Shown here: piece after piece, positions 1-54,288 of the stretch | Layout of the letters: each line of letters starts with the position of its first letter | Position numbering within the stretch: the first letter of the stretch is position 1 | Assembly: GCA_963662465.1 (NCBI GenBank) | Contig: OY759599.1 | Location: 32,001-96,000 of the forward strand | Length of the DNA: 64,000 nucleotides | Source of the DNA: Desulfatiglandales bacterium | GTDB lineage: Bacteria > Desulfobacterota > DSM-4660 > Desulfatiglandales > Desulfatiglandaceae | Reading direction: 5' to 3' | Made by a program: the position numbers and the translations under genes | Notes under the pieces: generated by a model | The model's input: the letters and a program-made list of their open reading frames with translations, nothing else | Told to the model about the DNA's origin: nothing | The model's database searches: none

Positions 1-52
1 GGTTCAAAGCTTTCACCACATTAAGCGGATGAAAAAAGGGATGCATTTCACC

Positions 53-652
53 CTAAAGAGAGTTTTTAATGAAATACCATAAATGATGTGCCAGTCGGGA
101 TGGATTCAAGGCGAGCAAATCAGGGGGAAAGAATTCTGTATTTCGTTTCCGATAAACAGCCGCGATACGCAGTTTGGCATTCCAGTCCAGTTGGTCAACA
201 TTGTCGATGAAAACCCACTCCATATACTTTTCCCTCTCAACCTCCTTTATGGATTCTGCCAATCGGGACAATATCAGCTCCATTCCCTCCAGTTTGGTGT
301 CAGAGGCATCCATGAGCGCCACATCATAACCATCGTCGTGAGCGCCCGGGTAATTTTTTCTGAGCAGGGAAACGGCCTCGGCAAGGGCCTCTTCGGTGGA
401 AAGGTGTCGGGGAAGGCGAAGCCCGGTCTTGTAGACGTGGGAAACAAACCTGCCGATTATTCTATTGAAGTCACAATGGGAACAACCTTCTTCGGTCTCC
501 CATCGAAATGCCTGTGCCGCCTGATCGATGGGGTCATCAATTTCATTAGCCATCTGTTTTCCATCGAGGAGCATCATGATGGCATCGATGGCCTTGTCTG
601 CCGAATGATCGGTATCAGAACTCCTCATAGGTGAACTCCTCGGGTGCTTCAC
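53..652 (-). CDS. Hypothetical protein, member of a local paralog family
   Basis: 199-aa ORF co-oriented with its neighbours; aligns by eye with the C-terminal ~190 aa of 2834..4390 and the N-terminus of 615..2810. Confidence 0.7.
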   Translation of the reverse strand: MKHPRSSPMRSSDTDHSADKAIDAIMMLLDGKQMANEIDDPIDQAAQAFRWETEEGCSHCDFNRIIGRFVSHVYKTGLRLPRHLSTEEALAEAVSLLRKNYPGAHDDGYDVALMDASDTKLEGMELILSRLAESIKEVEREKYMEWVFIDNVDQLDWNAKLRIAAVYRKRNTEFFPPDLLALNPSRLAHHLWYFIKNSL

Positions 653-2810
653 TTTGGACAGGGGTCAAAGGACTATGGTGGAGATCCCAACGCCGGTTCC
701 TTTGCCGGATGAGATCACGGACCACATGCACCGGTTTGTAATATTGCCTGTAGGAGCGCTCTATAATGGCATCTCTAAAATGTCGCTCGGGAATTTCCAG
801 AGGGCCGGACAACTCCACCTTTACGATGTCTATTCCGATACGGGCGACTGCCTGGCCAAGTTTTAGATTTACGAGGTCATCGCTTCGAACAAGGCCGTTA
901 AGGTCCTTGGTCAAATAGCGGGCATCTTTACCGTCCACATTCATGATGATGGTCGTACCCACGCTGGATAAGGCGTCAATCTTCTTGGTGCCAAACTGGC
1001 TGAGGTAATGATGGGCCAAGGTAAGGCTGGCATTGAATTTTCTCGTCTCGGAAATGAGGTCTTCCATTGCGGGGGTCAGGAAGCGATGGGCCTCATCTAC
1101 ATGAAGAAAAAACTGTTTACGTTCTTTTTCCTTGGTGTCACTCCGGCCCAAGGCGGCAAGATGGAAAAGCGATAAAATAAAACACCCCAGTATCTCCCGG
1201 ACTTCTGAGCCTATGGTGGAAAGGTCTACCAGAAAAATCATTCCTTCGTCCATGATCCGACGAAAATCGATGACGTTCTCCGGCTGGGACAGCATCAGGG
1301 CGACCGTGCCGGAGACGAGAAGCTTGCTCAGTTTATGTTTTGGAGGGCCAAGGGCCTCGTTGGAATAATTCAGGAAATCCTCTTGCCAGAATCGGAGGGC
1401 GGTCTGGTTATCCACCACCTTGATGATCTCTTTGCGGAGCCGCTCGCTCTCTTCGCTCCCGCGGCGAAGAAGGTCAGACAGATCCAAAAGAGTGCTGCCG
1501 GGTAGCTGAAGAAGGGCATAGAGGCCGTGCCTGAGCAGGTGCTCTAATCGATCCCCCCATCCCGTAACCACGCTCTTGAACGCAGCCACAATGTCATCTG
1601 CGGTACGGGTTACATCCTGCCCGCGATTTCTCTTGAGACAGTTCCACAAAGGAACATGATCATGGTTTCCGGGATCAAAGTAGATCGTTTTTTCAACATG
1701 CTCTTCCTTTATCAGGCAAAGAAGATCTTCAATAAGGTCTCCATGGGGATCCAGCACGGCCACACCCATCCCCTTGTCAATGTCGTCTAATATCATTCGA
1801 GCCATGGTGGTGGATTTGGCGGTTCCGGGCCTGCCAATGATGTGGGTGGAACGGGAACGAGACATAAGGGGCATGCAGACCGGGGATTCAACCCCCGCAT
1901 ACTCGCATGTTCCGATAAGCGTGCCCTTATGGAGAGCGATATTTCGTACAGGGAGCGTTTCAAGGATGTCCATCGGCGCTTCCCGATATTCCAGGATTCC
2001 AACCGGAGGAATGTGTACAAGTCCGGCAAGCTCTGCAGAGTTGACAAGGAAGCCGGGACGATACGTCACGCCCAAGAGAAACATATCCATGATCCTTTCA
2101 CTGGAGATAACCCTGCGGTATTGTGTATCGGTGATGGATTCAAGGGGACGACCGCCGTGCTGGAATACGCTCAAAAATGTAGAGATTGCCTTGAGATAGA
2201 AATCCCCAAATTCCTTCCCTGATATCATTCCCACTCGGATCGCAGCAGAATAGAAGGGTTTATCGTTGTGGGCTTTACATTCAACATCCTTGGCCATTTC
2301 CCGCAAATCCCCGGATGGCGCCTGCTGAAGGTGTTTTTGAGGGGTCTGAAGGCCGTTTAACAACTTGAGTGAATATTCCAGATCCAGAAGACTTTCCACA
2401 TTCTGGTGCCAGCAGTGCTCAGGCCTGACGGGTTGCAGGAGTGCTTGATAAAATCCAATCCCCGGAGGTTTTATTTCCATGAGGGCGGCGATCAGCGGTT
2501 TATAAGAGGAAACCTGGATTTCATCCGGTTGTGTAAGAATGATGTTTCCACCCTGACGTCTATATTCTTTCTCTAATATTTCCTTTGCCCGTCCCGCGGC
2601 CTCGGTGCGGGACATAACTCCCCCATGTACCACACACAGGCTGAAGTGGTAGCTGAAATAGTCGGCAATCACGTTGGTAAACTCGTCAAAATCTCCGACC
2701 GTGTTCTTGCTGAGAGAGAAATGCACGCGCGCTTCGTCGTGAGAATTCGTGACATTCTTGGCAATTGCCAGCTCATCCAATGCTGCCACAAGGCTTTCCA
2801 ATGATCCCAT
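615..2810 (-). CDS. VirD4/TraG/HerA-like P-loop ATPase (coupling-protein-like), probably a chimera with a paralog-family N-terminus
   Basis: HIIGRPGTAKST Walker A variant, VLDPHGDL, HVDEAHRF Walker B, ETRKF; the first ~90 aa resemble the local paralog family. Confidence 0.8.
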   Translation of the reverse strand: MGSLESLVAALDELAIAKNVTNSHDEARVHFSLSKNTVGDFDEFTNVIADYFSYHFSLCVVHGGVMSRTEAAGRAKEILEKEYRRQGGNIILTQPDEIQVSSYKPLIAALMEIKPPGIGFYQALLQPVRPEHCWHQNVESLLDLEYSLKLLNGLQTPQKHLQQAPSGDLREMAKDVECKAHNDKPFYSAAIRVGMISGKEFGDFYLKAISTFLSVFQHGGRPLESITDTQYRRVISSERIMDMFLLGVTYRPGFLVNSAELAGLVHIPPVGILEYREAPMDILETLPVRNIALHKGTLIGTCEYAGVESPVCMPLMSRSRSTHIIGRPGTAKSTTMARMILDDIDKGMGVAVLDPHGDLIEDLLCLIKEEHVEKTIYFDPGNHDHVPLWNCLKRNRGQDVTRTADDIVAAFKSVVTGWGDRLEHLLRHGLYALLQLPGSTLLDLSDLLRRGSEESERLRKEIIKVVDNQTALRFWQEDFLNYSNEALGPPKHKLSKLLVSGTVALMLSQPENVIDFRRIMDEGMIFLVDLSTIGSEVREILGCFILSLFHLAALGRSDTKEKERKQFFLHVDEAHRFLTPAMEDLISETRKFNASLTLAHHYLSQFGTKKIDALSSVGTTIIMNVDGKDARYLTKDLNGLVRSDDLVNLKLGQAVARIGIDIVKVELSGPLEIPERHFRDAIIERSYRQYYKPVHVVRDLIRQRNRRWDLHHSPLTPVQSEAPEEFTYEEF

Positions 2811-2833
2811 GTATCCCCCCCTTTTTTATGTCC

Positions 2834-4390
2834 TTAGAGTGTTTTCAGCAGTTCCGAAACCCTGTCTAACGATTCCATATAGTAGAGTATAACCTCTTCC
2901 CAATGGAACGAAAGCTGTTCTGGCGATTTCCCCCTGAGGTCGACTGGCAGTTGCGGCCCTATCCGTTCCATAAAGACCTTCATTAACCTGATTTTTGCAT
3001 CCTGGTCAAGAGGGTCTATTGAAACTTTGAGCACCATACCAGTGTGGTTTTTCATTTTCTCGTGCTTCAAGTGTTCCGTCATGGAGTCAAACACCAGGCG
3101 CATTCCCCCGTTAATGCCGTGCTTTCCCTCTGCCAGTGCGGCATTGTACCCTCCTTTGCGTGCAAAAGCGGCTCTTACCAGTTCAATTGCCTCAGAAGCA
3201 AGAGCACTCCTCTTGAGGCTCCCTTCAGGCGAGCCGATGTGCCGGAAAATATGGCCATAAAAGGAGGTAATTGCATCGTTGAATGTGAAGCCGTCTTTGA
3301 CCGTAACGGAATCAGGGGCATAACTGCCCCGGGCATTGTCGAAAGGGTGCCCGATCTTTTTGGCCAGGTTTTCTTTGCTTAGTTCTGCCAGGAGCCTTTC
3401 AAAAAGCGCGTTTTCCGTGTCATGTTCATGCGATTCGGCGGCGCTGGCTGCATTGATTGCAAAAGGCCGCTCGCCAAAACCGTCACCAAACAAGGCCTTG
3501 TAGAGCTTCCGAACATCCTCTATATCATTTTTTTTGGCATGTTGTGTCAGCTGGATACAAAACTCAGGTGAAACCAGTGGAAACAGGTCATCTAACGTTC
3601 GTGTGGAGGGAGGCAGGGAAACAACCAGTCGAAATAGTTGTTCACCGAAACGCTCGGGATAGCTCTGATTTTTGAGGTGAAAATCAACGTAGGCTTGGAG
3701 CAGCAGCCGGCCATTTTCGACCATACGATTCATAAGGGACCGCCCCAGGGCATCCCAGAACCTCTTTTCGTTTCCCTCAACAAACATGCCAACTGTCCTG
3801 CCTATGGGGTCTTGGGCCTCTCCGGGAGGGGTCTTCAAACCAAAAAAACCGGTCTTTAAGCTGCCGAGCACAATGGATGAATCTGTGGCGAAAATCCTCA
3901 AGGCATCGGACACATCACCCAAGGGGTAGATCTTTAAATCTCCTTTGTGACGGAGCAGACTCTCTTTTGCGGATTGATATTCAATTGGCGTCAGGACCTG
4001 TAAGGATCGGTCCATTTCAAGTTCCGGAAAGGCCTCGGCCTCCTTTTTAATGCGCTCATATTCCGCATTCCAATGGGGAATGCTCCTGAATGTGCTTATC
4101 AGGGTTTCCTCCTGTTCTTCATTGCCTGTGAACGTATCGGTGGCCAGATCATAGAGTAAACCGTAGATTACGTCCCTGATTTGTTGTATCCCCTGGTCGG
4201 CCCTTACACCGGATGGTTTGAGAGCGGCCCTGGTAAATTCCATGAACTGGCGAAAACCTTCTAAATATTCCGGTTGGCTGCCGAGTTCTCTGATCTCCTC
4301 GAAAGCGTCATCCATTGCGTCTCTTGTATTTACGTTGTTAAGGGCACGAGCAATTATCGGAATAAAGTACAAATCCTTGTTATTTGTCAT
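2834..4390 (-). CDS. Hypothetical protein, possibly a fusion, with a C-terminal paralog-family domain
   Basis: Long ORF; likely start at ATG 4390 (MTNNKDLYFIPII); C-terminal domain similar to 53..652. Confidence 0.65.
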   Translation of the reverse strand: MTNNKDLYFIPIIARALNNVNTRDAMDDAFEEIRELGSQPEYLEGFRQFMEFTRAALKPSGVRADQGIQQIRDVIYGLLYDLATDTFTGNEEQEETLISTFRSIPHWNAEYERIKKEAEAFPELEMDRSLQVLTPIEYQSAKESLLRHKGDLKIYPLGDVSDALRIFATDSSIVLGSLKTGFFGLKTPPGEAQDPIGRTVGMFVEGNEKRFWDALGRSLMNRMVENGRLLLQAYVDFHLKNQSYPERFGEQLFRLVVSLPPSTRTLDDLFPLVSPEFCIQLTQHAKKNDIEDVRKLYKALFGDGFGERPFAINAASAAESHEHDTENALFERLLAELSKENLAKKIGHPFDNARGSYAPDSVTVKDGFTFNDAITSFYGHIFRHIGSPEGSLKRSALASEAIELVRAAFARKGGYNAALAEGKHGINGGMRLVFDSMTEHLKHEKMKNHTGMVLKVSIDPLDQDAKIRLMKVFMERIGPQLPVDLRGKSPEQLSFHWEEVILYYMESLDRVSELLKTL

Positions 4391-4472
4391 TCCCTGAGCC
4401 CCTTTCACGTTCAATAAGATCCAGTACCTCTTCCAAACCGCCTGCAACACCGGAAGAGAGAACTGTTTCCAC

Positions 4473-4590
4473 ACCGTATCCACCATCTTACAGAGAGAGG
4501 CCTATATCGGGACCATGGTCTACAACAAGGTCAGCAAGGTCCCGGGCACCGAAAAAAGAAAGAGAAATCCGGAATCAGAATGGGTGAATG
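4473..4590 (+). pseudogene. Fragment of a large serine recombinase (recombinase domain)
   Basis: Translates TVSTILQREAYIGTMVYNKVSKVPGTEKRKRNPESEWV, matching the IL..xxYxG....NK...NP..EW pattern. Confidence 0.55.
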
Positions 4591-4692
4591 GGATTGTTTA
4601 CGAATCAACCTCCGGAGGATTGTTTCGCACGAAAAATTCAGGGGCCTGAATTGTTAGTGCAACAACAAAAAAATAACCGCGTAATCTGTGAA

Positions 4693-5042
4693 ATGCGCCT
4701 GTCGGAGATGCCGCTAAGCGGTGCCCCGTTAAATTGGTGGAACCACAGCGTATTTATCTGGGGTGCCAAGAAAAGCATCAAGAGGGCAATGGCCGCTGAG
4801 TGCAGCCGGAAACTGGGCTGTAAGGCCAAGCAGGAAACCCAACGACGATGTCGACCTCTAAAAGATGGTGAAAGCCTTTAAGCAGGATTGCAGAAAATGG
4901 GCGATGGACCTTCTTTAACAACAGCGGAATCGGGATTCCCTGTGCATGCCTTACGACAAGAGTATCGGGAGAGCCGTACAGTGGAAATCTCTACCTACGG
5001 TTCGACGAGGACCTCGGGATTAAACCCCCGAGGTTACTCTAC
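4693..5042 (+). ncRNA. Group II intron remnant without an RT ORF
   Basis: Domain V-like GAGCCGTACAGTGGAAATCTCTACCTACGGTTC at ~4971-5003, domain VI-like hairpin CCTCGGG...CCCGAGG, and 3' CTCTAC end; the 5' boundary (ATGCGCC) is uncertain. Confidence 0.7.
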
Positions 5043-5075
5043 CGGTTCACACAACTAAATCCCTTTTTGCTTCTA

Positions 5076-5130
5076 CCTGCCCCGTGAAACCGTTGTTGCA
5101 GTTGTTTCACTGGGGTTTAACCGGGGTGCC
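5076..5130. repeat. Short dispersed palindromic repeat (CCCCGTGAAAC...GTTTCACTGGGG type)
   Basis: Inverted arms visible; related copies near 20853-20890, 62015-62065 and 62103-62142. Confidence 0.6.
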
Positions 5131-5526
5131 AGAAACCCCTTGTCGTTAATAACCGGGTACAGACCTCAACATAACAACCACCAAGAGTCAACGGCAGATT
5201 TGACCCCATGCCCTTTGATGCACATCCCAAGGTCACTGAAGGTGTAAAACCACGACCCGGCATCGAGTGGCAGGTGACTTCAATATAAGGACGTTATAAC
5301 CAACACCCAAATAACGGCAATAAGGAAGGCCTGACCCCATCATCACAACCCTCTAACGCATCCAAATCCGTGTAACCCAAAGGGCGGAGCTGTCTTCAAG
5401 ATTTGACTGCAAAACAAAACCAAAAACCGTGTCATCCGTGAAATCCGCGCCAAAAAAACTAAAGAAACCACCAACGTCCCCTGCACCAATTTGTGTTTCC
5501 GCTTTTCACATATGAGGTAACCAGTC

Positions 5527-5751
5527 ATGAAAAGTCGCATCTTTGATAAACATTTTCCGACGATTCTTGGGGCAGGCAGTGTAATGGAAATCTGGCCAAC
5601 GGAAAATTATGATCGTTATATGCCAGACCCTATTCCGGCAAATAGCCTCAAGGGATATTGGATGAACGTTAACTCGTACGTGTGCAAAGGCATTGTGCAA
5701 TATGAGTTGGATTGCCATACCAGACTAGCCGAAAGTCTAAATGATGAATAA
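5527..5751 (+). CDS. Small hypothetical protein
   Basis: 74-aa ORF with GAGG RBS, bounded by a motif on each side. Confidence 0.5.
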   Translation: MKSRIFDKHFPTILGAGSVMEIWPTENYDRYMPDPIPANSLKGYWMNVNSYVCKGIVQYELDCHTRLAESLNDE

Positions 5752-5794
5752 TAAGCGAAGCCTGACCCCCTAATTTTATGGTCTCGTCCCCCTA

Positions 5795-5865
5795 CCTTTC
5801 CGAATACGAACTGAAGAAGAGGGAGTTTAGGGATCGTACGAAAAGGTACGCTTCGGCTGTTAGTG
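5795..5865 (+). pseudogene. N-terminal fragment of a four-helix-bundle protein
   Basis: ELKKREFRDRTKRYASAV resembles the L.DRTK.FA N-terminus of the family (compare IDERTFDFA at 59019). Confidence 0.4.
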
Positions 5866-6043
5866 CCAACGTTCCCCATTACTCCCCAAATGACAAAGAG
5901 AGCAAAATACCCTCAGTCCATGAGAAATGCAGTTGCGTAGCAACGTCCCCCATTCCACAGACCTCAGGAAATTGGGAACCGCTATAAAAATCTGTTGTCA
6001 TTTTGGCGTCATTAATTTATCCTGTTTGTAAAGAAGGAGGTGT

Positions 6044-6334
6044 ATGATGACGCTGAACAAAACAGAAGAAAGAATTCCTGCCCGAATGCCCCATGAGGTT
6101 TACGAGCGAATTGTTGCGGCTGCCCATACTGTCGGAGCCACACTGAACCAGTTTCTTGTTCAGGCGGCTATTGACAAAGCGAATGAAATTCTGGAAAGGG
6201 AGCGCATTATTTCTCTTACTTCAAAAGACGCAGATACGCTTTTTCATCTGATCGATAATCCGCCTGAACCGAATGATCATCTCAAAGCAATTATGAATCA
6301 GAGAGAGGCAGAGGCGCTTTTGTGCCGGAAATAG
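6044..6334 (+). CDS. DUF1778 (TacA-like) RHH antitoxin
   Basis: ERI.ARMP...I..AA..G..LNQF pattern and PPEPN; AGGAGG RBS; overlaps a GNAT gene. Confidence 0.88.
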   Translation: MMTLNKTEERIPARMPHEVYERIVAAAHTVGATLNQFLVQAAIDKANEILERERIISLTSKDADTLFHLIDNPPEPNDHLKAIMNQREAEALLCRK

Positions 6335-6825
6335 GTTCTCTTTTTCGCCATCATGACCGGGCCGGATTTGATTGCGGAGTTCCAGCACTGAACGGTTTTC
6401 TCAAGTTCACGGCCAGGCAGCATGGTGATAAAGGGATTTCACGCACATTTGTTTTAACCGGGCCGGAAAACCCATCCATCATTCTGGGCTATTTTACACT
6501 GACACTCTGTGAAGTCAAAACAGAACATCTTCCAGCCTTATATGCCAGGAAATTTCCGAAACACGGGCTTCCAGCCGTTCGACTGGCCCGCCTGGCCGTT
6601 GACACGCGATTTCAGGGTCGTGGATATGGTGGACGTCTTCTTGCCGAAGCGATCCATCGGACGGTTTTGATTGCGGAACATGCAGGCGTGATTGGACTGT
6701 TTGTGGATGCGAAAGATGAAACTGCCTGTCTGTTTTATCAACGGTATGATTTTAAGTCTCTTCCGGACAATATCCGGAAATTGTTTCTGCCGATTGAAAC
6801 CCTACGAAAAGGGTCCCTGCGATAA
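6322..6825 (+). CDS. GNAT acetyltransferase toxin (TacT/AtaT-like)
   Basis: HDRAGFDCG, LARLAVD..FQGRGYG, VDAKDE, FY..Y.F. Confidence 0.9.
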   Translation: MPEIGSLFRHHDRAGFDCGVPALNGFLKFTARQHGDKGISRTFVLTGPENPSIILGYFTLTLCEVKTEHLPALYARKFPKHGLPAVRLARLAVDTRFQGRGYGGRLLAEAIHRTVLIAEHAGVIGLFVDAKDETACLFYQRYDFKSLPDNIRKLFLPIETLRKGSLR

Positions 6826-7006
6826 CTTCAAAAAGAAGGACCCGGAAGCCATCAGGAAGAACCCGGAAAAGTTCCCGGCAGATTTTATATTCGAGTTGAA
6901 CGAAAAGGAACAGGATTTTTTAAGGTCGAAAATTTCGACCATAAAGACAGGAAGGGGCAAGCACGGAAAATTTGCCACAAAGGCTTTCGCGGAACAAGGC
7001 ATTTGA
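6822..7006 (+). pseudogene. ORF6N-domain protein fragment
   Basis: AIRKNPEKFPADFIFELN...LRSKIST...GRG...KAFAEQGI; no start codon and truncated. Confidence 0.7.
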
Positions 7007-7324
7007 TATTCGACAAAGGAAAAACAGGCGCGGTATGGAAAACACGGCAAATAGAAATATGAGAGAAACGCAAGAACGCATGGGCGTCCCCAAGGGCCCC
7101 AGAATATGCTGGTCAGCTGGGTGAGATCCATGCCCTGGGTTTATAATGCGTGCCCTAATCAAGTCCTTAACCCCTAAATCTTAAATCCTAATAACCACAA
7201 TAAATAAACCCTGACCCCCTAATAAAAAATCCGTGTAATCCGTGAAATCCGCGCCAAAAAAAGAAAAAACAGTCATCCCCAACCCCAATAACGACAATAA
7301 AGAAAGCCTGACCCCCTGATTGTT

Positions 7325-7534
7325 ATGACCCATGTCGCAGGTTTTCCATTTTCCATCGTGAACTTTCACAGTATTTATGCCGCGCCCAAAGATTATCTCC
7401 TGGAACTGGCCGGCAGACAGAACCTACGCATTCGGCTTCGGCCGCCATACCGGGAAAACCTGTCGCAGGCCTTTGGCAAGTATTTTATGCGTGTTGGGCT
7501 TCCTCTGGATATTCGAGCGTTTGCTCGCAGTTAG
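7325..7534 (+). pseudogene. C-terminal fragment of a conserved hypothetical protein
   Basis: RIRLRPPYRENLSQAFGKYFMRVGLP; bounded by TGACCCC and TGTCCCC motifs. Confidence 0.55.
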
Positions 7535-7589
7535 ATAGGATGTCCCCATTATAATACAAGCGTAAACTAGTGAAACAAGCAACGTCCCC

Positions 7590-8342
7590 CATTATTTTTT
7601 TGACAGGTTCGAAATAGTTACATTCAAGTATCCAGTCGAATGTTGTACTTTGACCTCCACCTCTCAGATTTATAGGAATTTCCTTTAAGTAGCCATTTAC
7701 TATTATTTTTGTGCCAGGGCATGACCTCTTTTCAGATATTGGCGATATAAGGTCTTGTTTTAAGAAAATTTTCATTTTTTTTGGTTGTTCACCACCGTCA
7801 AGGGTTTCAATATCTTCTTCAATCGTCATATGTTGGGCATCTATCAATTCTTTAGAAAGCATTTTGAATTTACCCTTACGCCCACATCCACATCTTGAAG
7901 GCTCTCTAAATTTCTGTTCAAGTTGAAGAAGTGGTATGATATTTCCACATGAAGGGCATTCAAATTTTGATGTTACAACTTGAGGTCTAATGTCGCTTTT
8001 TTGTCGAATAGTTCCTTGAACACAAATGAATTTTTCTAAATGTTTGCTTCGTAAGTCTCTGATTCGCTTTTTCTGACTTTTTGGAATATTTTTAATCCTT
8101 ACAATTACTTCAATATTATTTTTGATAGCGAGATCAAATAATGAAATTGATATACTTACTGCCTTAAGGGATTCCTCAGGATTTTCAATCAGGTCTTCTG
8201 CTAAATTGATATTCTGTTTTGATATTTCATTAAAATCCATAACGAAATATCTATCCCCTTTTCTTACAGATTCTATAAGGGTGTCATAATAGAGGATTTC
8301 TATTAATTTTCTGTATTCACCTATTTGTTCTTGGGTTTCCAT
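7590..8342 (-). pseudogene. mcm: Archaeal-type MCM helicase, N-terminal domain only (truncated)
   Basis: IRDLRSKHL, FECPSCG...RCGCGRKG zinc finger, QHMTIEE, GGEQPK, DLISP, PG..I.V.G; the AAA+ domain is absent and similarity ends at the CGTCCCC motif. Confidence 0.88.
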
Positions 8343-9031
8343 TGTATAATTTGTTTAGGAGATAATTTTCTATAGCATTCTTTATGCAGAAATACTCCAT
8401 TGTACACTTCTGAATAATCTTTTGAGTCTTTGTGAATAGGGCGCTTACATTTAGCACAGTCACCTATCTTGTTTTTTTCTATATCAGCATCTTCATTGAT
8501 TTCTCCGATTTTAGATTTGTATATTTTATTGAAAGAGATTTTTCTTCTTTCGATATTCGCATAGTCACTTTGATAAAGATATTTGCCATATATCTCATCT
8601 AAGAATTGTTCAACAACTGGTTTGAAATCATCAGAGAGTTTGAATAGTTTTGTTTTTTTATAACTTCTTTTGCCATTTGGATGAATCATATTCCATGTTT
8701 CTCTTATAGCTTTATTCTCATTAGAGTCTTCATGCAATTCTTCAACAATATTCTTCGTTTCAAAGTGAAATAATAAATCTCTTAGGTCTTTGCCATAACC
8801 TAGATTGAAATGCATTGTTAGTTCCCAAAGGCTTGAGACTCCAACGTTATATAGGACATAAACTAATTTGCTTTTCGTTTTATCAAGGAATATAGAAAGG
8901 ATATCTCTGAAGTTTCTTTCAAAATTCAGATTTATATTTTGATCATTATGGATTTCGAGTTTTGAGACAAAATCACAGATTACACATACTCTTCTCTGAA
9001 ATTTGTTTTCAGTGGGTGTGATTGTTGCCAC
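8321..9031 (-). CDS. Hypothetical protein with a C-terminal CxxC...HxxC zinc site (possible replication or regulatory protein)
   Basis: Low-GC ORF overlapping the MCM start; likely GTG start at 9031; CAKC...LHKEC. Confidence 0.6.
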   Translation of the reverse strand: MATITPTENKFQRRVCVICDFVSKLEIHNDQNINLNFERNFRDILSIFLDKTKSKLVYVLYNVGVSSLWELTMHFNLGYGKDLRDLLFHFETKNIVEELHEDSNENKAIRETWNMIHPNGKRSYKKTKLFKLSDDFKPVVEQFLDEIYGKYLYQSDYANIERRKISFNKIYKSKIGEINEDADIEKNKIGDCAKCKRPIHKDSKDYSEVYNGVFLHKECYRKLSPKQIIQWKPKNK

Positions 9032-9204
9032 CTCTTTCAAATTTATCCGGCCTTGCAGAGAAATCAGTAATTTCTTCAGGATCAACAAGCCAAATGAAAT
9101 TAGATCCTTTTATGAATAGTTTATTATCTGAAGTAATATTTTTTAGAATTCCGATTGCTTTTCTTTTATTAAAAAGTAAACCACTACCTCTGGTAGTGGA
9201 ATAA

Positions 9205-9800
9205 AAAAAGGTTCTACCGGTGTATTGAATATGACGAGTATTATATGTCTTCCTGGAAGGTGCGAAACTAACAGGAGGCATATAATGACTCGTCAACGTC
9301 AATTCAAGAAATTAGCACATTCTTTGTATGAGTGTAAGTACCATGTGGTGTTTTGCCCGAAATATCGCTACAAAATATTGCAGGAAGAAGTGGCAAAATA
9401 TGTGATGCAACAGATATATCGGTTATGTAATCAAAAAGATGACGTAGAAGTGGTGGAAGGTAATGTGCAAATTGACCATGTTCACCTGGTCGTATCAATC
9501 CCTCCGAAATACGCCATATCGCAGTTCATGGGGTTCCTGAAGGGGAAACTGGCTCTACAACTATTTGACCGTTTTCCTCAACTGCGAAAAAAATACTGGG
9601 GACAACATGTGTGGTCGAGAGGCTATTGTGTGAGTACGGTAGGCTTAGATGAAGAGCGGATCAAAAAGTATGTAAAATGGCAGCATAGTAAAGATAAAGA
9701 TGCCCATGTGACGCAAGGTAAATTGTTCAAATAGAATAGGTACCATGCACCTTCCAGGTGCATTAATTCAAGCCACCACCTTTGGTGGTGGTCATTGACT
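9205..9800 (+). mobile_element. IS200/IS605-family element (tnpA only)
   Basis: Y1 transposase plus 3' hairpin CCACCACCTTTGGTGGTGG...TTGACT; left end approximate. Confidence 0.85.
9285..9734 (+). CDS. tnpA: IS200-family Y1 HUH transposase
   Basis: CKYHVVFCPKYR, DHVHL, WSRGYCVSTVG, KKYV; AGGAGG RBS. Confidence 0.95.
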   Translation: MTRQRQFKKLAHSLYECKYHVVFCPKYRYKILQEEVAKYVMQQIYRLCNQKDDVEVVEGNVQIDHVHLVVSIPPKYAISQFMGFLKGKLALQLFDRFPQLRKKYWGQHVWSRGYCVSTVGLDEERIKKYVKWQHSKDKDAHVTQGKLFK

Positions 9801-9967
9801 CTTTCTTTCAGCAACAACAAACATTCCTAGAAAGTTTCTGTACTGCTCAACTAAACTATCATTTGTCAAATATACACCTCTAAACTTATCTTATCTAAAA
9901 CCGTAAAATATATATACTCATTACCCTTAGAATTCACTAAGTTGTTCAATCTTAATGTTTGAGTGAT

Positions 9968-10174
9968 TTAGCCTTGTTCTTTCAGGGTGGGATCAGGACC
10001 AGGGCTGGGTGCTCTGGTCTGCTTTTTTTTAATATCATCTGGAATATCTACAGTTACTATACTTCCTATTTCAACAACATCATTATACATTGGTGGGACA
10101 GAAATAAATTTTCTTGTGTTTCCATGTCTATCCTTTCCAGCTTTGATTGCCTTTGCTCTAAACCTCATACACAC
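9968..10174 (-). CDS. Small AbrB-like DNA-binding protein (tentative)
   Basis: KAIKAG...RKFISVPP....V.IG..V.VDI swapped-hairpin-like pattern. Confidence 0.45.
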   Translation of the reverse strand: MCMRFRAKAIKAGKDRHGNTRKFISVPPMYNDVVEIGSIVTVDIPDDIKKKQTRAPSPGPDPTLKEQG

Positions 10175-10229
10175 ACGATAAACACAGCATATATTTAAAC
10201 TTTCCTAACTCCTTTTAAGTGGTTAATAA

Positions 10230-10515
10230 ACTCTACGCCATTTTACGTAGAGTGTTTTTGCAACATGTTATAAAAAACTATCAAAAAGTATGATTTTTGC
10301 CGGAAAATTGACTCTACGGAATTATCACGTAGAGTCCTATTTTGACCTATTTGTTGCCTCTGAAAAATAACTCTACGGTCAAAACACGTAGAGTGGTTTT
10401 TATGCATTTACCGTGTTTAACTTAACTACTACTCTACGTATTTTCTACTAGTAGTTAGTCTACGTTACATAAATATATATTATATAATATACTCTACGGA
10501 ATTATCGCGTAGAGT
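10230..10515. repeat. Five regularly spaced palindromes ACTCTACG-N8/9-CGTAGAGT (candidate origin or operator array)
   Basis: Copies start at 10230, 10311, 10370, 10431 (degenerate) and 10491; AT-only tract at 10471-10490. Confidence 0.85.
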
Positions 10516-10591
10516 TAAATCCTTATTTTTTGATGAAAATGTCAAAATCCACCAAAAAGTATATATACTCAAGCATGTATGAATAAAAAAT

Positions 10592-11803
10592 ATGGCAGAA
10601 ATTGATATCCTTGCACCTTTCCGAAACATCAGCCCAGGCCAATTCATATCCAGATATTCTGATTGGATTCTTTTTATACTCCTGATCTTCTTTTTTTGGT
10701 CCGTTATCACAATCTCACTCAAAAAACGCTTTGGTGATTCAAAGGCATTTAGAATCCTAGCAACCTCTACAGCCCTATTATTATCAGTTAGTACATACTA
10801 TATGATTTACAAAGGCAAACTTAACATATCTCTAGAAGGGCTTGGTATGTTTGGAGCCATGCTCGTCCTGATTGTGATATTTTTCATTCTTTTTGCTCTG
10901 CAAAGAAACTTTAATATGAAAACTAAACTTTCTCTTCCATTAGGATTTGTCCTGTTTTATTTGTCGCTAGTTAGACTAACACCTAACATCATGAATGATA
11001 TCCAAAATATATTTCCATTTGCAAAAGCAATTATGGTAGGACTATTTTTATTTTCATTATATAGGGTGATAGTCGAGTTCATAAAACATTCAAAAGGAGA
11101 TTTGAAGTTAGAAGCACAAAAAATAGAAAATATTCGAATCCCACCAAAAGATGTGCCAGAGATCAACCATGAGCTGAAGGATGACAAGAAGGAAAAAAAA
11201 CTGCTGAAAGGCAAAACCTTGAAACTTACAAAGATGGAGATCAATACTGTTGATGATATAGAAAACCTACTAGGCCACCTAATTAAATTGATTAAGGAGA
11301 AAGGCAAAAATATCAGTCAGGATGAAACCTTGCAGATCTCCAACTATCTTAGGCAATTGTCTAACAAAGAAAATATTCTCATCAGAAGTATGCCTATTTT
11401 GAAAAGGCAGGCAGAAATCTTCAAATCAAAACATAGAAAAGATATCAATGAACTCCAAAAGCGATACCAGGAAGCCAAGGATAATCCTAAACAACAGGAA
11501 ATAATAAAAGAAGAAATCTCATTCCAAAAGCGAATGATTGAAGTGCTGGACTTCATCGAAACCTATGAAAATAGAATCGTAGAATTCACACAATCACTCA
11601 ACCAAACAATCTCTAAGTCTATGATTAAGCTCAGAAGTATTTACCCTCACGAATGCGTGGAATATCTGGAATCTGCCAGAAAATCGATTGAAGGCATGAA
11701 ACATATTTTCAAAAAACAAAAAGAGCTTGAGAAATATGTCCTCTCGCTGAACAAGAAAACAATTAAGGATCTGAAGAAAGAAAAAAAGGCAGATCAATCT
11801 TAA
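10592..11803 (+). CDS. Membrane protein (~5 N-terminal TM segments) with a coiled-coil C-terminus
   Basis: 403-aa ORF; hydrophobic N-half and K/E-rich helical C-half. Confidence 0.75.
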   Translation: MAEIDILAPFRNISPGQFISRYSDWILFILLIFFFWSVITISLKKRFGDSKAFRILATSTALLLSVSTYYMIYKGKLNISLEGLGMFGAMLVLIVIFFILFALQRNFNMKTKLSLPLGFVLFYLSLVRLTPNIMNDIQNIFPFAKAIMVGLFLFSLYRVIVEFIKHSKGDLKLEAQKIENIRIPPKDVPEINHELKDDKKEKKLLKGKTLKLTKMEINTVDDIENLLGHLIKLIKEKGKNISQDETLQISNYLRQLSNKENILIRSMPILKRQAEIFKSKHRKDINELQKRYQEAKDNPKQQEIIKEEISFQKRMIEVLDFIETYENRIVEFTQSLNQTISKSMIKLRSIYPHECVEYLESARKSIEGMKHIFKKQKELEKYVLSLNKKTIKDLKKEKKADQS

Positions 11804-11930
11804 AATTAGAACAACGCTCAAAGATTAATCTTTTGCCTTCTGATTTGGCACGCCAGACATCTGTTTGACTCAATGCATTGTTAAGAAAGAAGTTTCTTTG
11901 TAGAAATTGGTTTCGCGCTTTCAATTTTAG

Positions 11931-12119
11931 TCACCTCAAATTGCCAAAATAGGCATTATAGTTTTTACCGAAAGAAGGGTTTGAATTGCTCACCTTTTTT
12001 CTATTCTCATCCTCAATAACGAGGCAAATATTTCCGTTCTGAATCCTATATTTGTCGATTACTTTGCCATCAATTGTCTGCAATGAATTCATATAACCCA
12101 TTTTTGTCGAAGCCTTTAG
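11931..12119 (-). pseudogene. 3' part of a hypothetical gene interrupted by IS701
   Basis: The ORF runs into the IS end and the reading frame appears to continue past 14066. Confidence 0.4.
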
Positions 12120-15320: not shown

Positions 15321-15460
15321 CTTCTTGTAATCCAAAGAGCGGGGAGCTATGTGCGAAGTACCTTAAGAACCATGATCTTACTGCCCTCTGCCCCCTGACA
15401 ACTGCACCCTTTAACAACGACAATAAGGAAAGCCTTACACGAATTGGAGGAGAAGGAACT

Positions 15461-20210: not shown

Positions 20211-20323
20211 GATACCTTCTCGACACGAATGTGTGTATTTCGTATTTGAATAACCCTCAGTCACTCGTTCGTTTTCATCTCGAGCGCTCGGAACCAAGCT
20301 CCATACGCACAAAACTCATATAG
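20207..20323 (+). pseudogene. vapC: Truncated VapC (PIN) toxin
   Basis: MRYLLDTNVCISYLN, stops after 38 aa. Confidence 0.75.
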
Positions 20324-20399
20324 AGTTGTATAGAAGATGGCTCAATTGTAAAGAAAATCCTTTGTCCCCCCCTTGCGTGCAGCATTAGGAGCAGAGAAA

Positions 20400-20675
20400 A
20401 TGGAAGTAACTTGCTTTGTAAAAAGAGAAGGTAATCAATACGCTTCTTTGTGCGTAGAACTGGATGTTGCCTCCTGCGGGAGAACCAAGACAGATGCACT
20501 TGATGGTCTTAAACGCGCTATCGAAACATATATAGAATACATGGTTTCCGAGGGCCGTCAAAAAGACATCTATAGACCTGTTCCAATGAATGAGTTGAAA
20601 ACATTCCTATTTCCTGAAGATACGTTGGAGGAGAAAAGTCTTAAAGCGATTCCTTTGAGCTTCCAATATGCTTAA
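20400..20675 (+). CDS. hicB: HicB-like antitoxin
   Basis: YASLCVELDVASCGRT..DAL..LK.AI..Y. Confidence 0.8.
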   Translation: MEVTCFVKREGNQYASLCVELDVASCGRTKTDALDGLKRAIETYIEYMVSEGRQKDIYRPVPMNELKTFLFPEDTLEEKSLKAIPLSFQYA

Positions 20676-20727
20676 GAATTTATCAAGCCGGGATGTCGCA
20701 TGGGTGTTGAGTCAACTTGGTATTTAG
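20668..20727 (+). pseudogene. Truncated HicA-like toxin
   Basis: MLKNLSSRDVAWVLSQLG* overlapping the hicB stop. Confidence 0.5.
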
Positions 20728-20741
20728 ACAGATAGATATAA

Positions 20742-20852
20742 GAGTTGGCAACTCAAAACCCAACACTCAAAACCCAACACCATCTTTGCTCTCTCCGTTA
20801 CCTTCTGTAAAAAGCCCTTAAAAAAAAATCCTGTAAAATCCTGTAAATCCTG
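20742..20852 (+). repeat. Composite repeat (heptamer arm + CTTTGCTCTC...CTTCTGT + AATCCTGT arm), copy 1
   Basis: Near-identical direct copy at 22696-22815 and a partial copy at ~23995-24056. Confidence 0.85.
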
Positions 20853-20913: not shown

Positions 20914-22679
20914 ATGCAACAAAAACAACCCAATGCAACCATTAACAACGCCTCCTCTCCTCTCGACGTGTCCACCTCCCCCAGCGGAGAGGAGTTCCCT
21001 TTGCCGCGGCCCGAGGACTATAACCAGGAATTCAAGAGACTCAAGAAACTGGTGAATGAACAACGGCTCAAGGGTCGGGAAATAGTCGTTGTCATGGGTG
21101 TGGGGTTTGTAGGCGCTGTTATGGCGGGTGTGGTTGCCGACTCGGTGAATCGGGAAACGGGGGAATCCAGGTATTTCGTCATCGGTATGCAGCGGCCTTC
21201 TCCCCGATCTTTCTGGAAAATCCCGTACCTAAACAGGGGGATTGCTCCTGTGGAGGCTGAAGATCCGGATGTGGCGCCCTTGATTCAACGGTGTGTACAG
21301 GACAAGCAGACCCTCACAGCCACCTTTACCTACGATGCCCTGTCACTTGCGGATGTGGTGGTAGTGGATGTTCAGTGCGATTACCACAAGGAGAGCCTGG
21401 GGAATGTTCGTCAGGGACATGCCGACATAGAGGCACTGGAAGAGAGCCTCAAGATTATCGGAGAGAAAATAGAGCCGCACTGCCTGGTCCTGATCGAAAC
21501 GACCGTTCCTCCCGGCACCACGGAGTATGTGGCATACCCCATCATAAAAAGGGCCTTTGAAGCGCGCGGGCTTTTTCAGAAACCGACCTCTGACGTCTGT
21601 CCTCCGTCCTCTGACGTCTGTCCTCTGACTTCTGACTTCCGTCCTCCGACCTCAGTCCTCCGAAAAACGGCGGAGCCGCTTTTAGCCCATTCATTTGAGC
21701 GGGTAATGCCGGGGCGGGAATACGTGGCCTCCATTCGCGACTTCTGGCGCGTGTGCTCCGGCATCAACGATGAAGCCAGAGAGCGGGTGGTGGTGTTTCT
21801 GTCCAACATACTCAATGTAGATAAGTTCCCCCTGACCGTGCTGGACCGGCCGATTGAAAGCGAGACCTGCAAGATCGTAGAGAACTCCTACAGAGCCACC
21901 ATTCTGGCATTCATGGACGAATGGAGTCGGTTTTCCGAGAAAAACGGGGTTGACCTCATCAAGGTCGTGAAGGCCATCAAGGTGCGACCCACGCACGCCA
22001 ACATGATTTTCCCCGGCCCCGGCATTGGGGGATACTGCCTTCCGAAAGACGGAGGTCTTGGCGTCTGGGCCTATCATACGCTTATGGGGTTTGAAGATGA
22101 CATCTTCAAAATCACCCCGATGGCCATCGACATCAACGATACCCGTGCCCTGCATGTGGCCCAGTTGGTGCGTGATGCGCTGCGGAATATGGGACGGATA
22201 GTGGCCGCCTCCAAAATTGCGGTATTGGGCGCTTCCTACCGGGAAGATGTGGGTGACACGCGTTACAGCGGTTCAGAGATGGTCGTCCGGAAACTCACGG
22301 AGATGGGCGCGGATGTGGTGGTTCATGATCCGTATGTCAGCCACTGGTGGGAGCTGGAAAAGCAGGATACCTATCCCTCTCCCGGCCCCGGTTTTTCAGG
22401 AACCAGGACAAACTGAAGGAAATCTCAGTTCAGGATGACCTGAATAAGACCCTGTCCGGAGCTGATGCCGTTATTTTGGCGGTGCGACACCGGGCCTATC
22501 TTGGTTTGGACCCGGATGGGGTGGTGGAAATGATCGGTGGTCCGGCGGCTGTGGTGGACTGCTTCGGGGTGTTGGATGATGCGGCCATCAAGCGGTATTT
22601 CGAGTTGGGCTGCGAGGTCAAGGGACTTGGGCGGGGGCATATTAAGCGGATTAAGGATGCGGTCAGAGCTTCTGCGTAG
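20914..22679 (+). pseudogene. UDP-glucose/GDP-mannose dehydrogenase family gene, frameshifted near 22390
   Basis: GVGFVG, ETTVPPGTT, KIVENSYR, GPGIGGYCLPKD; the C-terminus (RFFRNQ...GLGRGH) is in another frame. Confidence 0.85.
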
Positions 22680-23968: not shown

Positions 23969-24062
23969 ATCATTAGGCTTTTACAGCTTAGTTTTCTTCC
24001 TTAACTTCTGTAAAAAGCCCGAAGCAAACATCCTGATAATCCTGTAAATCCTGTCAAAAAAA

Positions 24063-24484
24063 ATGGAGCCGGTTTTCCGAGAAAAACGGGGTTAACCTCA
24101 TCAAAGTCGTTCAGGCCATCAAGGTGCGGCCCACGCACTCCAACATGATTTTCCCCGGCCCCGGCATCGGCGGATACTGCCTTCCGAAAGATGGAGGTCT
24201 TGGCGTCTGGGCTTACCATACGCTTATGGGGTTTGAGGATGACATTTTCAAGATGACCCCTTTAGCCATCGATATTAACGACACGCGTGCCTTGCATGTG
24301 GTCCAGTTGGTGCGGGATGCTCTGCGGAATATGGGACGGATCGTGGGGGCATCCCGGATTGCGGTTTTGGGCGCCTCCTACCGGGAAGACGTGGGCGATA
24401 CGCGTTACAGCGGTTCTGAGATGGTCGTCCGAAAACTCACTGAAATGGGCGCTGAAGTGGTGGTCCACGATCCGTATGTCAGCC
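24063..24484 (+). pseudogene. Diverged 422-bp duplicate of an internal dehydrogenase segment (21921-22342)
   Basis: Colinear alignment; mostly synonymous differences. Confidence 0.9.
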
Positions 24485-24491
24485 TTTCAGC

Positions 24492-24695
24492 CTGATTCGG
24501 AAAAGAGTCGTTGAAAAGATACCGGAAGTCATAGAGTTTGAACCGGAATAGCGTGATTTTCGCCAAGGTGATGTGCGGCACTCTTTGGCGGACATTTCAA
24601 AGGCAAGGGAAAAGTTGGGGTTTGCGCCGAGATTTTCTGTGAAAGAAGGACTTGAAAAATCGGGAGACTGGTATCTCCATAAGTTTGCTGGATAG
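24492..24695 (+). pseudogene. 3' fragment of an NAD-dependent epimerase (WbpP-like)
   Basis: RDFRQGDVRHSLADISKAREKLGFAP..SVKEGL...WY, with an internal stop. Confidence 0.75.
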
Positions 24696-24802
24696 TCATG
24701 ATACAACAAGTAACGGACGAGGATAGAGAGTAATCTTCATTATCTACCGACGTCCCCCCCCATTCCACGTCCCCCCCATTCCATATAAGTATTGGAGGAA
24801 TT

Positions 24803-25036
24803 ATGGAAGCTTTTGAGTTTGAAACCGTTCATGAAAATGGAATGATCACAATACCCGATGAAATTAGACATAACTTAACGAAGAAACTTAAGATAATTAT
24901 TCTGACCCAAGAGGAAAAAGAAACTGCTTTAAGTAAACTGTTGCTTGATGCTCCTACATGGAATGAATCTTATATAACTGAGTTTTATAAAGAAATTCGA
25001 GAAGGATATGCAGATTGGAAGATAGACGAATTCTAG
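24803..25036 (+). CDS. Putative antitoxin
   Basis: MEAFEFET...G.I.IP; overlaps the PIN gene; GGAGG RBS. Confidence 0.65.
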   Translation: MEAFEFETVHENGMITIPDEIRHNLTKKLKIIILTQEEKETALSKLLLDAPTWNESYITEFYKEIREGYADWKIDEF

Positions 25037-25404
25037 TTGACACTTCTGTTGTTATTGATCACTTCAGAAAGAAAAATAAACAAAAGTCATTACTTTATGA
25101 ACTGGCAAAAGATAACAAATTGTTTTTGTCTGCGATAAGCAAATTTGAGTTTTTGGTAGGTACAAAACCTTCCCAAATTAGTCAAACAGAAAAACTAATT
25201 GAAGGGTTTTTTATTTTATCTTTCAATTCTAATGTTGCTGCTGTTGCAAGTGATATTGCCAAAAAATTAAAAACAAAAAATAAAATTATCGAATTTAGAG
25301 ATATATTTATTGCTGCAACAGCTATTGCCAACGATATACCGCTATCTACTTTAAATATTAAACATTTCGAAAGAATAGATGATTTAGAATTAATTGGTTT
25401 TTAG
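25015..25404 (+). CDS. vapC: VapC (PIN) toxin
   Basis: ILVDTSVVID, D.FIAATA, TLN.KHF. Confidence 0.9.
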   Translation: MEDRRILVDTSVVIDHFRKKNKQKSLLYELAKDNKLFLSAISKFEFLVGTKPSQISQTEKLIEGFFILSFNSNVAAVASDIAKKLKTKNKIIEFRDIFIAATAIANDIPLSTLNIKHFERIDDLELIGF

Positions 25405-54278: not shown

Positions 54279-54288
54279 ATACAGTGAT

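Follow-up and report, generated by a model that had tools for sequence, protein, structure and literature searches.

Within a 64,000-nucleotide stretch of the genome of a Desulfatiglandales bacterium (contig OY759599.1, positions 32,001 to 96,000; hereafter the window), positions 5201-7589 hold an array of short C-rich units that all point the same way and stand between small gene cassettes and gene scraps. These units very probably derive from the terminal inverted repeats (TIRs) of TIRYT genes, as orphan copies of the right end; TIRYT genes encode RAYT-like Y1 transposases, and several TIRYT subfamilies contributed units to the 2.4-kb stretch. Our preferred reading, that TIRYT ends and a joining mechanism together account for the array, is held with some confidence; for the joining part on its own, namely that TIRYT enzymes make the joints, we put the chances a little short of even. 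Positions are those of the window unless the genome is named.

The heptamer YGWCCCC matches the window 43 times on both strands, while shuffled sequences give 26.1 +/- 5.4 matches and 0 of 100 shuffles reach 43. On the + strand of 5201-7589 there are 11 matches (at 5201, 5332, 5475, 5763, 5785, 5944, 7085, 7212, 7309, 7541 and 7583), accompanied by further degenerate copies; on the - strand there are none. A twelfth copy, CAACGTTCCCCATTAC at 5867-5882, has one mismatch to the 16-mer CAACGTCCCCCATTAC. The original prediction of about 12 same-strand motifs in 2.4 kb holds. The whole genome (8.16 Mb) carries 2184 matches on the + and 2079 on the - strand, or ~0.27 per kb per strand, which gives an expectation of ~0.64 for 2.4 kb of one strand against the 11 seen: both density and orientation are far from the genome background. 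Genome-wide, the count is just 1.0-1.4 times what mononucleotide composition predicts; the excess is one of local clustering and not of general abundance. An extended form, AATAARGAARGCCTGACCCC, lies at 5319 (+), 7296 (+) and 63777 (-), and a copy at 15418-15441 lacks the last 8 nt, TGACCCCC; it thus recurs at each place that had been named from the sequence alone (~5318, ~7294, partial at ~15420, inverted at ~63777).

Genome-wide, 15 clusters of at least five sites per 2.5 kb occur on the + strand and 17 on the - strand; three regions hold the richest of them:

Island A, genome 29-102 kb: contains the 64-kb window
Island A', genome 8.082-8.1616 Mb: diverged paralogue of A, 79-100% identity by block
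Island B, genome 6.997-7.108 Mb

The sole richer place in the genome is 7.011-7.021 Mb, with 21 sites per 10 kb. The 2.4-kb array belongs to 12 kb of sequence that A and A' share at 99.99% identity (copy at genome 8082092-8094116) and is therefore counted once. A and A' form a segmental duplication of ~80 kb (genome 29146-101959 versus 8082092-8161625) adjoining both ends of the single contig. Because its blocks diverge, from 100% down to 79.6% identity, the duplication argues for real paralogues rather than an untrimmed circular overlap; an assembly problem is also possible.

A complete unit consists of two 8-9-nt direct repeats followed by (C)AA-CGTCCCC-CATTAC or by TGACCCC/CGACCCC variants, and in the array it occurs in right-end orientation only. 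The window holds no Y1 class-2 gene, and the array copies form no inverted pair around a gene. The proposed link of the motifs to HUH/Y1 (RAYT-like) enzymes, with genes at other places, is upheld by the finding that inverted copies of each class border Y1 genes, either in this genome or in relatives. This genome has 30 Y1_Tnp matches, among them intact genes of three subfamilies: one at 7013342 (360 amino acids, aa), two at 5085485 and 5088057 (331 and 340 aa), and four copies of 337 aa. The four 337-aa genes share a unit of ~1059 nt; ACGTTCGTCAGATTATAAGTT ... AACTTATAAACTGACGAACGTCCC(C) encloses three of them, and the fourth has a different left flank. A search of the genome for Y1/RAYT genes between inverted copies, as had been proposed, found them for the 337-aa and 331/340-aa genes, with the remaining classes placed by relatives. 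The CTGACGAACGTCCCC and ACTTGACCCCATT classes border the 337-aa and 331/340-aa genes, AATGGGGTCAAGTCCGCTCTTG and its inverse border the genes at 5085485 and 5088057, and inverted pairs of the ACGTTCGTCAG and GGGGTCAAGTCC types likewise surround Y1 genes in this genome.

Three further classes were assigned with the help of relatives. The CAACGTCCCC class (M1) belongs with the 360-aa gene (7013342-7014424, island B), in whose product HFH and Y...NP motifs are seen and after which GGCAACGTCCCCCATAC occurs twice. We inspected relatives of this gene at 15 loci in other Desulfobacterota and beyond. The right end ...AACGTCCCC (CGTCCCC) lies 11-62 nt downstream in all seven loci where the match reaches the C-terminus and sequence beyond it is present (L017, L018, L019, L021, L022, L023, L028), and the inverted GGGGACGTT (GGGGACG) lies 53-216 nt upstream in five (L021-L024 and L026), three of which have perfect TIRs of ~25 nt. 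The upstream copy is direct, not inverted, in L018, L019, L020 and at the 360-aa locus of this genome. In this small sample, relatives with at least 60% identity had the array layout, and those with 44-51% identity the canonical one. For the GGTCCGACCCC class (M2) the partner is a 256-aa gene (7018206-7018976) that ends in ...GTTGCTGAGGTCCGACCCCAAG; 55 of the order's 209 genomes contain its family, with many partial matches, and GGGTCGGRCC...GGYCCGACCC stands on both sides in 11 of 14 inspected loci. The GCCTGACCCC class (M3) forms an inverted pair around a 317-aa Y1_Tnp and DnaA_C gene in a congener (G003). A 21-mer, CAATAAGGAAAGCCTGACCCC, is present with at most two mismatches in 14 of the 209 genomes, with 28 copies in another congener, G005.

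The proteins agree with this assignment. Y1_Tnp and Bac_DnaA_C (cut-off 31.5 bits) match the 360-aa protein at 50.2 and 40.3 bits, the 331-aa protein at 54.2 and 36.5 bits, and the 317-aa protein of the congener at 58.8 and 26.3 bits, the last value being below the cut-off; the 256-aa family matches Y1_Tnp only, with no C-terminal helix-turn-helix match. Against the published TIR consensus GGGGWSAS, the M3 tip GGGGTCAG agrees at 8 of 8 positions, GGGGTCAA and GGGGTCGG at 7 of 8, and the M1 tip GGGGACGT at 6 of 8. Direct repeats stand beside the tip in many units: GAATAGTG twice in the commonest unit of this genome, TTGACTAxA twice (L021) and AACATTTA twice (L023) in relatives, and AAACTAAC/CAAACTAC or AAACTTAA twice in metagenome units.

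If the units mark joints, homology between islands should break at their edges. Islands A, A' and B were compared with one another, the A/A' pair and local tandem repeats being excluded, and breakpoints were scored in the interval from -5 to +25 nt of the last C of a motif. Ends of high-scoring segment pairs fell near a strict motif in 11 of 168 cases (random mean 3.5, standard deviation 1.9, maximum 10 in 1000 shuffles) and starts in 11 of 166 (3.3 by chance); ends concentrate at 0 to +7 and starts at +7 to +11. Breakpoints are thus enriched about threefold at the outer edge of the unit. The original prediction, that foreign sequence starts right after the motif, stands as a tendency to start a few bases past ...CCCC(C)ATTAC, but not as a rule: ~93% of island breakpoints lie away from any strict motif. 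Several joints lie at unit edges. The tail of a PIN gene (genome 7003160-7003342) begins ~10 nt past an M2 end and stops at ...CATTAC; a scrap of a GxxExxY gene begins 6 nt past CAACGTCCCCC; and, in a recent truncation, a gene intact in A has lost its first 26 codons in A', with the break 7 nt past an M3 end. At this last place (15418-15441; genome 8104409-8104445 in A') it is A that lacks the 8 nt TGACCCCC at the M3 tip, and the 80-nt deletion in A' that takes the gene start begins 7 nt beyond this indel.

Other processes also act on the islands. Two cassette swaps between A and A' (20306-20782 and 24485-25638) are bounded by conserved sequence, so homologous recombination shuffles the islands as well. 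Insertions of IS200, DDE_5, IS4 and IS91 types differ between A and A'; one of these, a 1560-nt insertion with an IS91-type (Y2 HUH) transposase at genome 8150016-8151577, is missing from A at 59899. A polysaccharide cluster in the window contains a BRO-N gene between two 89% copies of the 3' part of a UDP-glucose dehydrogenase gene, and an AbrB-like/PIN pair placed likewise with an epimerase; both segments look like imports that brought their own homology arm. M1 units occur in this cluster at 22843, 24751, 24768 and 25468, and the diverged 3'-part copies are as follows:

21920-22219 versus 24062-24361
24529-24700 versus 25480-25645

The arrays extend well beyond this genome. A search of 40 relatives found exact copies of the 16-mer CAACGTCCCCCATTAC in four other genera, with reversed-pattern controls near 0, and metagenomes yielded at least 128 stretches that contain it. 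From the metagenomes, 70 distinct loci seeded with CAACGTCCCCCATTAC (212,651 nt) were sampled, four more being left out as the same contigs as L091 and L109. Further CGTCCCC words number 123 on the seed strand and 17 on the opposite strand (27 versus 11 for a control word); 40 of the 70 loci have at least two same-strand copies, and among contigs with two or more exact 16-mers nine are co-oriented and one is inverted. A logo of 116 non-seed sites reads CAA-CGTCCCC-CaTTAc, with information falling to zero from 6 nt past CCCC. The congener G005 has co-oriented arrays of M3.

The cargo of these arrays was surveyed in 150 of 164 open reading frames (ORFs) from 25 of 26 chosen loci (Pfam, E <= 1e-4). 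Matches were returned for 38 of the 150, of which 36 share the strand of the motif. Mostly they are toxin-antitoxin genes, ORF6N, 23S_rRNA_IVP and scraps; HicA, PIN, DUF433/DUF5615, TumE and HepT/nucleotidyltransferase are represented, the scraps are of PDDEXK_3, GDP_Man_Dehyd and DUF6765, and the whole matches the cargo of island B and of the window. TIRYT pieces account for four of the annotated ORFs and an IS200 for one. With so few transposase remnants, and with left ends no more frequent than background, the arrays are poorly explained as whole elements that simply decayed. In the metagenome loci (L063-L136), eight pairs of CGTCCCC sites are exactly 12 nt apart (CGTCCCCCATTA repeated), a tandem duplication of the terminal 12-mer and possibly a trace of tip cleavage and rejoining.

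Within the window, the array and its surroundings are made up of the following pieces:

4969..5042, + strand: group II intron domain V/VI remnant directly upstream of the array (Rfam RF00029, 35.3 bits, under the gathering score of 40, E = 5.7e-4)
5076..5116, + strand: 41-nt hairpin module CCCCGTGAAAC...GTTTCACTGGGG, conserved across 12 or more genomes of the order (85-95% identity)
5182..5210, + strand: motif 1, CAAGAG...ATTTGACCCCATG, like the right TIR of the 331/340-aa Y1 genes (similarity only)
5306..5338, + strand: M3 unit CCAAATAACGGCAATAAGGAAGGCCTGACCCC, the same unit that is inverted around the 317-aa gene of G003
5427..5487, + strand: M1b unit with ATCCGTG-type 8-9-nt repeats, an A-run and CCAACGTCCCC; a module in more than 10 genomes, repeated at 7226-7262
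5509..5752, + strand: cassette with a 74-aa ORF (5527-5751); on an X5 contig with 9 differences and unlike flanks
5753..5792, + strand: M3-like end AAGCGAAGCCTGACCCCC, then CTCGTCCCCC
5797..5866, + strand: scrap of a four-helix-bundle (23S rRNA intervening-sequence type) N-terminus, 88% DNA identity to genome 7010195-7010244
5867..5882, + strand: M1 end with one mismatch, CAACGTTCCCCATTAC, terminating the four-helix scrap
5924..5957, + strand: M1d unit ...GCAGTTGCGTAGCAACGTCCCCCATTCC, also in G149
5985..7006, + strand: cassette of TacA, GNAT/TacT and an ORF6N scrap (Pfam; X4 and X5 contigs)
6044-6334, + strand: TacA antitoxin (Pfam)
6322-6825, + strand: GNAT/TacT toxin (Pfam)
6827-7006, + strand: ORF6N scrap (Pfam, profile positions 30-80 of 86)
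7085..7098, + strand: CGTCCCC end; an X4 contig matches up to 7098, 7 nt past the last C
7190..7317, + strand: M3-like end (7190-7220), ATCCGTG repeat module (7224-7263) and M3 unit (7284-7317)
7325..7534, + strand: 69-aa ORF, 5' end replaced ~21 nt after the M3 end; 83% DNA identity to G164 from 7337, X4/X5 contigs begin at 7333
7530..7596, + strand: two M1 ends, ATAGGATGTCCCCATTATAA and ...AACAAGCAACGTCCCCCATTAT, 97% identical to the 3' flank of a decayed TIRYT gene (genome 7039457-7039493)
7485..8342, - strand: MCM N-terminal and OB fragment without the ATPase part (Pfam), cut at ~7590-7600 at the last unit
9171..9791, + strand: IS200-type element of 621 nt (Y1_Tnp at 9225-9734, Pfam E = 3.8e-38), missing from A'

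Of the unrelated pieces that had been named between the motifs, the toxin-antitoxin pair, the ORF6N scrap and the cut MCM gene are recognized by Pfam. The four-helix scrap (5797-5866) has no Pfam match, and its assignment rests in part on an N-terminal signature that we take to be characteristic; the 69-aa ORF, which had been read as a C-terminal scrap, is nearly full length (its homologue in G164 has ~76 aa). Rfam returned nothing for the whole window at gathering threshold; relaxed to E <= 1 over 1-12000, it gave no more than the group II intron piece, which is below threshold, and two chance matches. The hairpin module at 5076-5116 adjoins the 3' side of the intron remnant, and another copy lies just before a decayed TIRYT gene at genome 7038172; a strict regular expression, too strict for the purpose, returned three copies only. 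Downstream of the array, 7600-12000 is a 33% G+C island with the MCM fragment, ORFs of 255 and 403 aa without Pfam match and the IS200 copy. It looks like the remnant of a foreign (phage- or plasmid-like) replicon, in which the IS200 copy at 9171-9791 is a recent insertion unrelated to the motifs.

The segments between the units have separate histories. When the DNA of 5000-7700 was compared with genomes of the order, each segment matched different genomes: the toxin-antitoxin pair G114 (68% identity), the ORF6N scrap G013 and G078, and the unit modules many. A comparison of 1-9200 with the congeners G004, G005, G006, G007 and G010 gave three short module matches and no orthologous array, and a self-comparison of 4401-7800 against the genome gave short module matches of 31-91 nt only. 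Four inter-motif segments turn up one at a time in contigs of X4 and X5, two unrelated metagenome runs, with 95-100% identity and flanks that differ from those here:

5509-5752
5985-6770 (X4, 1 difference) or 5985-6915 (X5, 12 differences)
6833/6862-7098
7333-7581/7594

One X5 contig has the M3 end at 7316, 20 other letters and then the cassette that starts at 5509, a joint (7316 to 5509) between pieces that lie apart in the window. Summed contig depth of the repeat modules reaches 3000-4000 and 400-460 in X4 and X5 (7212-7445 and 5340-5573): organisms in these samples carry very many copies of the repeat units.

Several known kinds of site were considered for the units and set aside. No integron attC, that is, no R''(RYYYAAC)...R'(GTTRRRY) site of 55-150 nt with L''/L' pairing, is present on either strand of 4500-8000. 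The true attC sites of this genome are G+C-rich imperfect palindromes of 86-87 nt beside intI genes and occur elsewhere only; the five integron integrase genes above the TIGR02249 cut-off lie at 3.29, 4.43, 4.98, 6.13 and 6.79 Mb, none beside the array, which confirms the earlier statement that neither attC nor integrase is visible there. Folding of both strands with DNA parameters left 9 of 11 sites at |z| < 1.2, with no stable hairpin; with this lack of hairpins, and with all copies co-oriented, repetitive extragenic palindromic (REP) sequences and REPINs, which are palindromic hairpins with a GTAG or CGTC head, do not fit. Ends of IS200/IS605 elements were rejected, as the units have no subterminal palindromes and the IS200 at 9171-9791 is separate, and so were group II intron target sites: the motifs are not beside intron ends, save for the remnant at 4969-5042.

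Sequential capture by cutting and joining is a plausible origin for such an array. A TIRYT enzyme supplied in trans would bind the subterminal 8-9-nt repeats through its helix-turn-helix domain and cut a single strand at the unit's outer edge, ~6 nt past CCCC; for the 360-aa protein the unit GAATAGTGGAATAGTGGCAACGTCCCCCATTAC is a candidate single-stranded substrate. The nicked end would then be joined to a second unit or to a pseudo-site in other DNA. Joining of this kind would set modules beside an existing end, always in the same direction, and mis-joining would delete or truncate the neighbouring gene and so yield scraps; the outcome would be an integron-like array without attC or integrase. 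GC skew puts the origin at ~5.5 Mb and the terminus at ~1.75 Mb; in the + arrays of A, A' and B the motif would then lie on the lagging-strand template, a placement that would suit a single-strand enzyme. The point is weak and does not discriminate, because every island has a - sub-array too and the genes are biased in the same way.

A number of observations weigh against this account. Most island breakpoints, as given above, are off motif, the edges of the two A/A' swaps lie in conserved genes and not in motifs, and the TacT/ORF6N junction (6825/6826) has no motif. No close homologue of an M3-type enzyme is encoded in this genome (best 39-46% identity), and in the M3 arrays of G005 some genes are on the opposite strand. 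The distance from ORF to motif is loose, with medians of 217 and 297 nt, unlike the pairing of ORF and attC in integrons. The data of all four sequencing runs compared are contigs, which show presence and context and cannot show excision, and parts without cover carry no information. Finally, the available parts of the TIRYT literature (PMC3733652, PMC6006769, PMC5581495) report no biochemical activity for any TIRYT.

The array might instead be a graveyard, the decayed remains of many separate TIRYT insertions in a permissive island, with the units having no role in the arrival of the cassettes and with scraps produced by deletion, insertion sequence (IS) activity and recombination. The IS insertions that differ between A and A', the two swaps bounded by conserved genes, the preponderance of breakpoints off motif and the frequency of TIRYT fragments (the many partial matches to the 256-aa family in 55 of 209 genomes) are all in keeping with this. 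Decay of whole elements should however leave both ends, and in the metagenome loci the 17 opposite-strand copies compare with ~13 expected by our estimate for a 7-mer over 212,651 nt, and with 123 on the seed strand; TIRYT pieces make up only 4 of 38 annotated ORFs, 36 of the 38 share the motif strand, and breakpoints are enriched threefold at the outer edge. We regard such a graveyard as unlikely, though by no means negligible. It is improbable that the right-end unit has been co-opted, and is kept, as a cis element, whether outward promoter, terminator, insulator or RNA element. The same 36 of 38 ORFs on the motif strand of M1 arrays, and the conservation of the exact 16-mer in four other genera and at least 128 metagenome stretches, would be expected of one, but the sites show neither hairpin nor terminator (|z| < 1.2 in 9 of 11), their distance to ORFs varies, the M3 arrays of G005 have genes on both strands, and the same sequence pairs in inverted form around Y1 genes.

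That a tyrosine recombinase built the array, as an unconventional integron, a cluster of attC sites lacking an integrase (CALIN) or an Xer/pdif module array, is very hard to credit: there are five integrase genes above the TIGR02249 cut-off in the genome, and the same-direction cassettes rich in toxin-antitoxin genes resemble those of chromosomal integrons, but the scan of 4500-8000 is empty of attC on both strands, real attC sites are elsewhere and the units are not palindromic. Chance, or the composition of a C-rich strand full of heptamer repeats, can be all but dismissed. Motif-like heptamer arrays do exist, some hits at 59.8-63.8 kb fall inside them, and the control word is itself skewed (27 versus 11); yet no shuffle of 100 reaches the count, and the 16-mer and 21-mer recur exactly in other genera or congeners where reversed controls are near 0. 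Heptamer arrays in the window include a 105-bp tandem array of 26 copies, composed of GTTTTGG/GTTTTGA heptamers, and long (GGAGGTC/GGAGGAC/GGATGTC)n arrays (54170-57100, 59970-60290 and 63360-63750); read on the other strand (CCGACCT, CCGTCCT), the latter resemble the TIR tips CCGACCCC and ACGTCCCC.

TIRYT ends joined by their enzymes, the reading we prefer, can be set beside several known systems. TIRtrons and TIRYT genes with the TIR consensus GGGGWSAS were described by Di Nocera, De Gregorio & Rocco (2013; PMC3733652). Quentin et al. (2018; PMC6006769) class TIRYT as TnpA-Y1 subclass 2.1, with Bac_DnaA_C, HTH_23 or HTH_28 tails and no REP hairpins, and Bertels et al. (2017; PMC5581495) as RAYT group 1, the largest group of RAYT-like genes. 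TIRYT are found in ~15% of strains (PMC6006769), and the available parts of these three papers give no function for them. Our elements share with TIRtrons the Y1_Tnp core with HUH and Y...NP motifs, the C-terminal Bac_DnaA_C-like helix-turn-helix, non-palindromic inverted repeats, and extra TIR copies, scattered or clustered; their tips agree with GGGGWSAS to differing extents, as given above. They differ in that orphan right ends stand in one direction between cargo and scraps, left ends are missing, and some TIRYT genes sit in arrays after a direct copy.

Other systems were compared as well. Members of IS200/IS605 (IS608, ISDra2), with their non-autonomous derivatives, also use an HUH/Y1 enzyme; they move by 'peel-and-paste' transposition, have strand-specific ends without inversion and insert 3' of a short target. 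The tail of our conserved unit, ...TTAC, corresponds to the target tetranucleotide of IS608. Unlike these elements, our units have no subterminal hairpins, the enzymes are of class 2 with a helix-turn-helix, and canonical TIRYT have inverted repeats. REP sequences and bacterial interspersed mosaic elements with their RAYTs (including REPINs) likewise have a Y1 enzyme that serves, in trans, short repeats outnumbering the gene; in contrast, REPs are palindromic hairpins headed by GTAG, mostly in inverted doublets, and the units are neither. A separate GTAG-REP/RAYT locus is in fact present at genome 406401. Classical RAYT genes at 406401 and 2784434 are bordered by GTAG-headed REP hairpins TGTAGGTGCGACTTCAGTCGCAC, and REP/RAYT, TIRYT and IS200 therefore coexist in this genome.

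Integron arrays and CALINs resemble the array in their small, same-direction toxin-antitoxin cassettes, each followed by a short site-like unit, and in that an array may stand without a nearby enzyme gene. Unlike integrons, the array has no attC and no tyrosine integrase, its units derive from transposase ends, ORF spacing is loose and many cassettes are gene fragments. Elements of the IS91/ISCR type transpose by a one-ended rolling-circle route with Y2 enzymes and the ends oriIS and terIS; like the system proposed here they have an HUH enzyme, and one end can mobilise adjacent DNA in stepwise capture. The units differ from them, as IS91/ISCR enzymes are Y2 proteins with oriIS/terIS, and the IS91-type gene in A' is an ordinary insertion.

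TIRYT genes, their TIRs and scattered TIR copies are thus already known (2013, 2018). TIR families are reported in 'dimers or clusters', with no cassette arrays in the available parts of PMC3733652, PMC6006769 and PMC5581495; and in the literature searched, which did not extend to the supplements of these papers, we found no description of one-directional arrays of orphan right ends around toxin-antitoxin cassettes and scraps. It is conceivable, if rather doubtful, that TIRYT enzymes and right-end units form a widespread, integrase-independent system of single-stranded-DNA cassette capture, which would nick ...CGTCCCC-CATTAC and join head to tail, a TIRYT that resides in an array without its left repeat acting as an integrase would. 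Equally tentative is the suggestion that such a system would build toxin-antitoxin and defence arrays in Desulfobacterota and many environmental bacteria.

The arrays provide TIRYT genes with a footprint: right ends mark the joints of one-directional toxin-antitoxin and accessory arrays in many uncultured bacteria. If the enzymes do not make the joints, the units are still markers of mosaic, fast-changing islands. If they do, bacteria would have a second way, besides integrons, to stack small gene cassettes, together with a readable pair of enzyme and site for the joining of single-stranded DNA.

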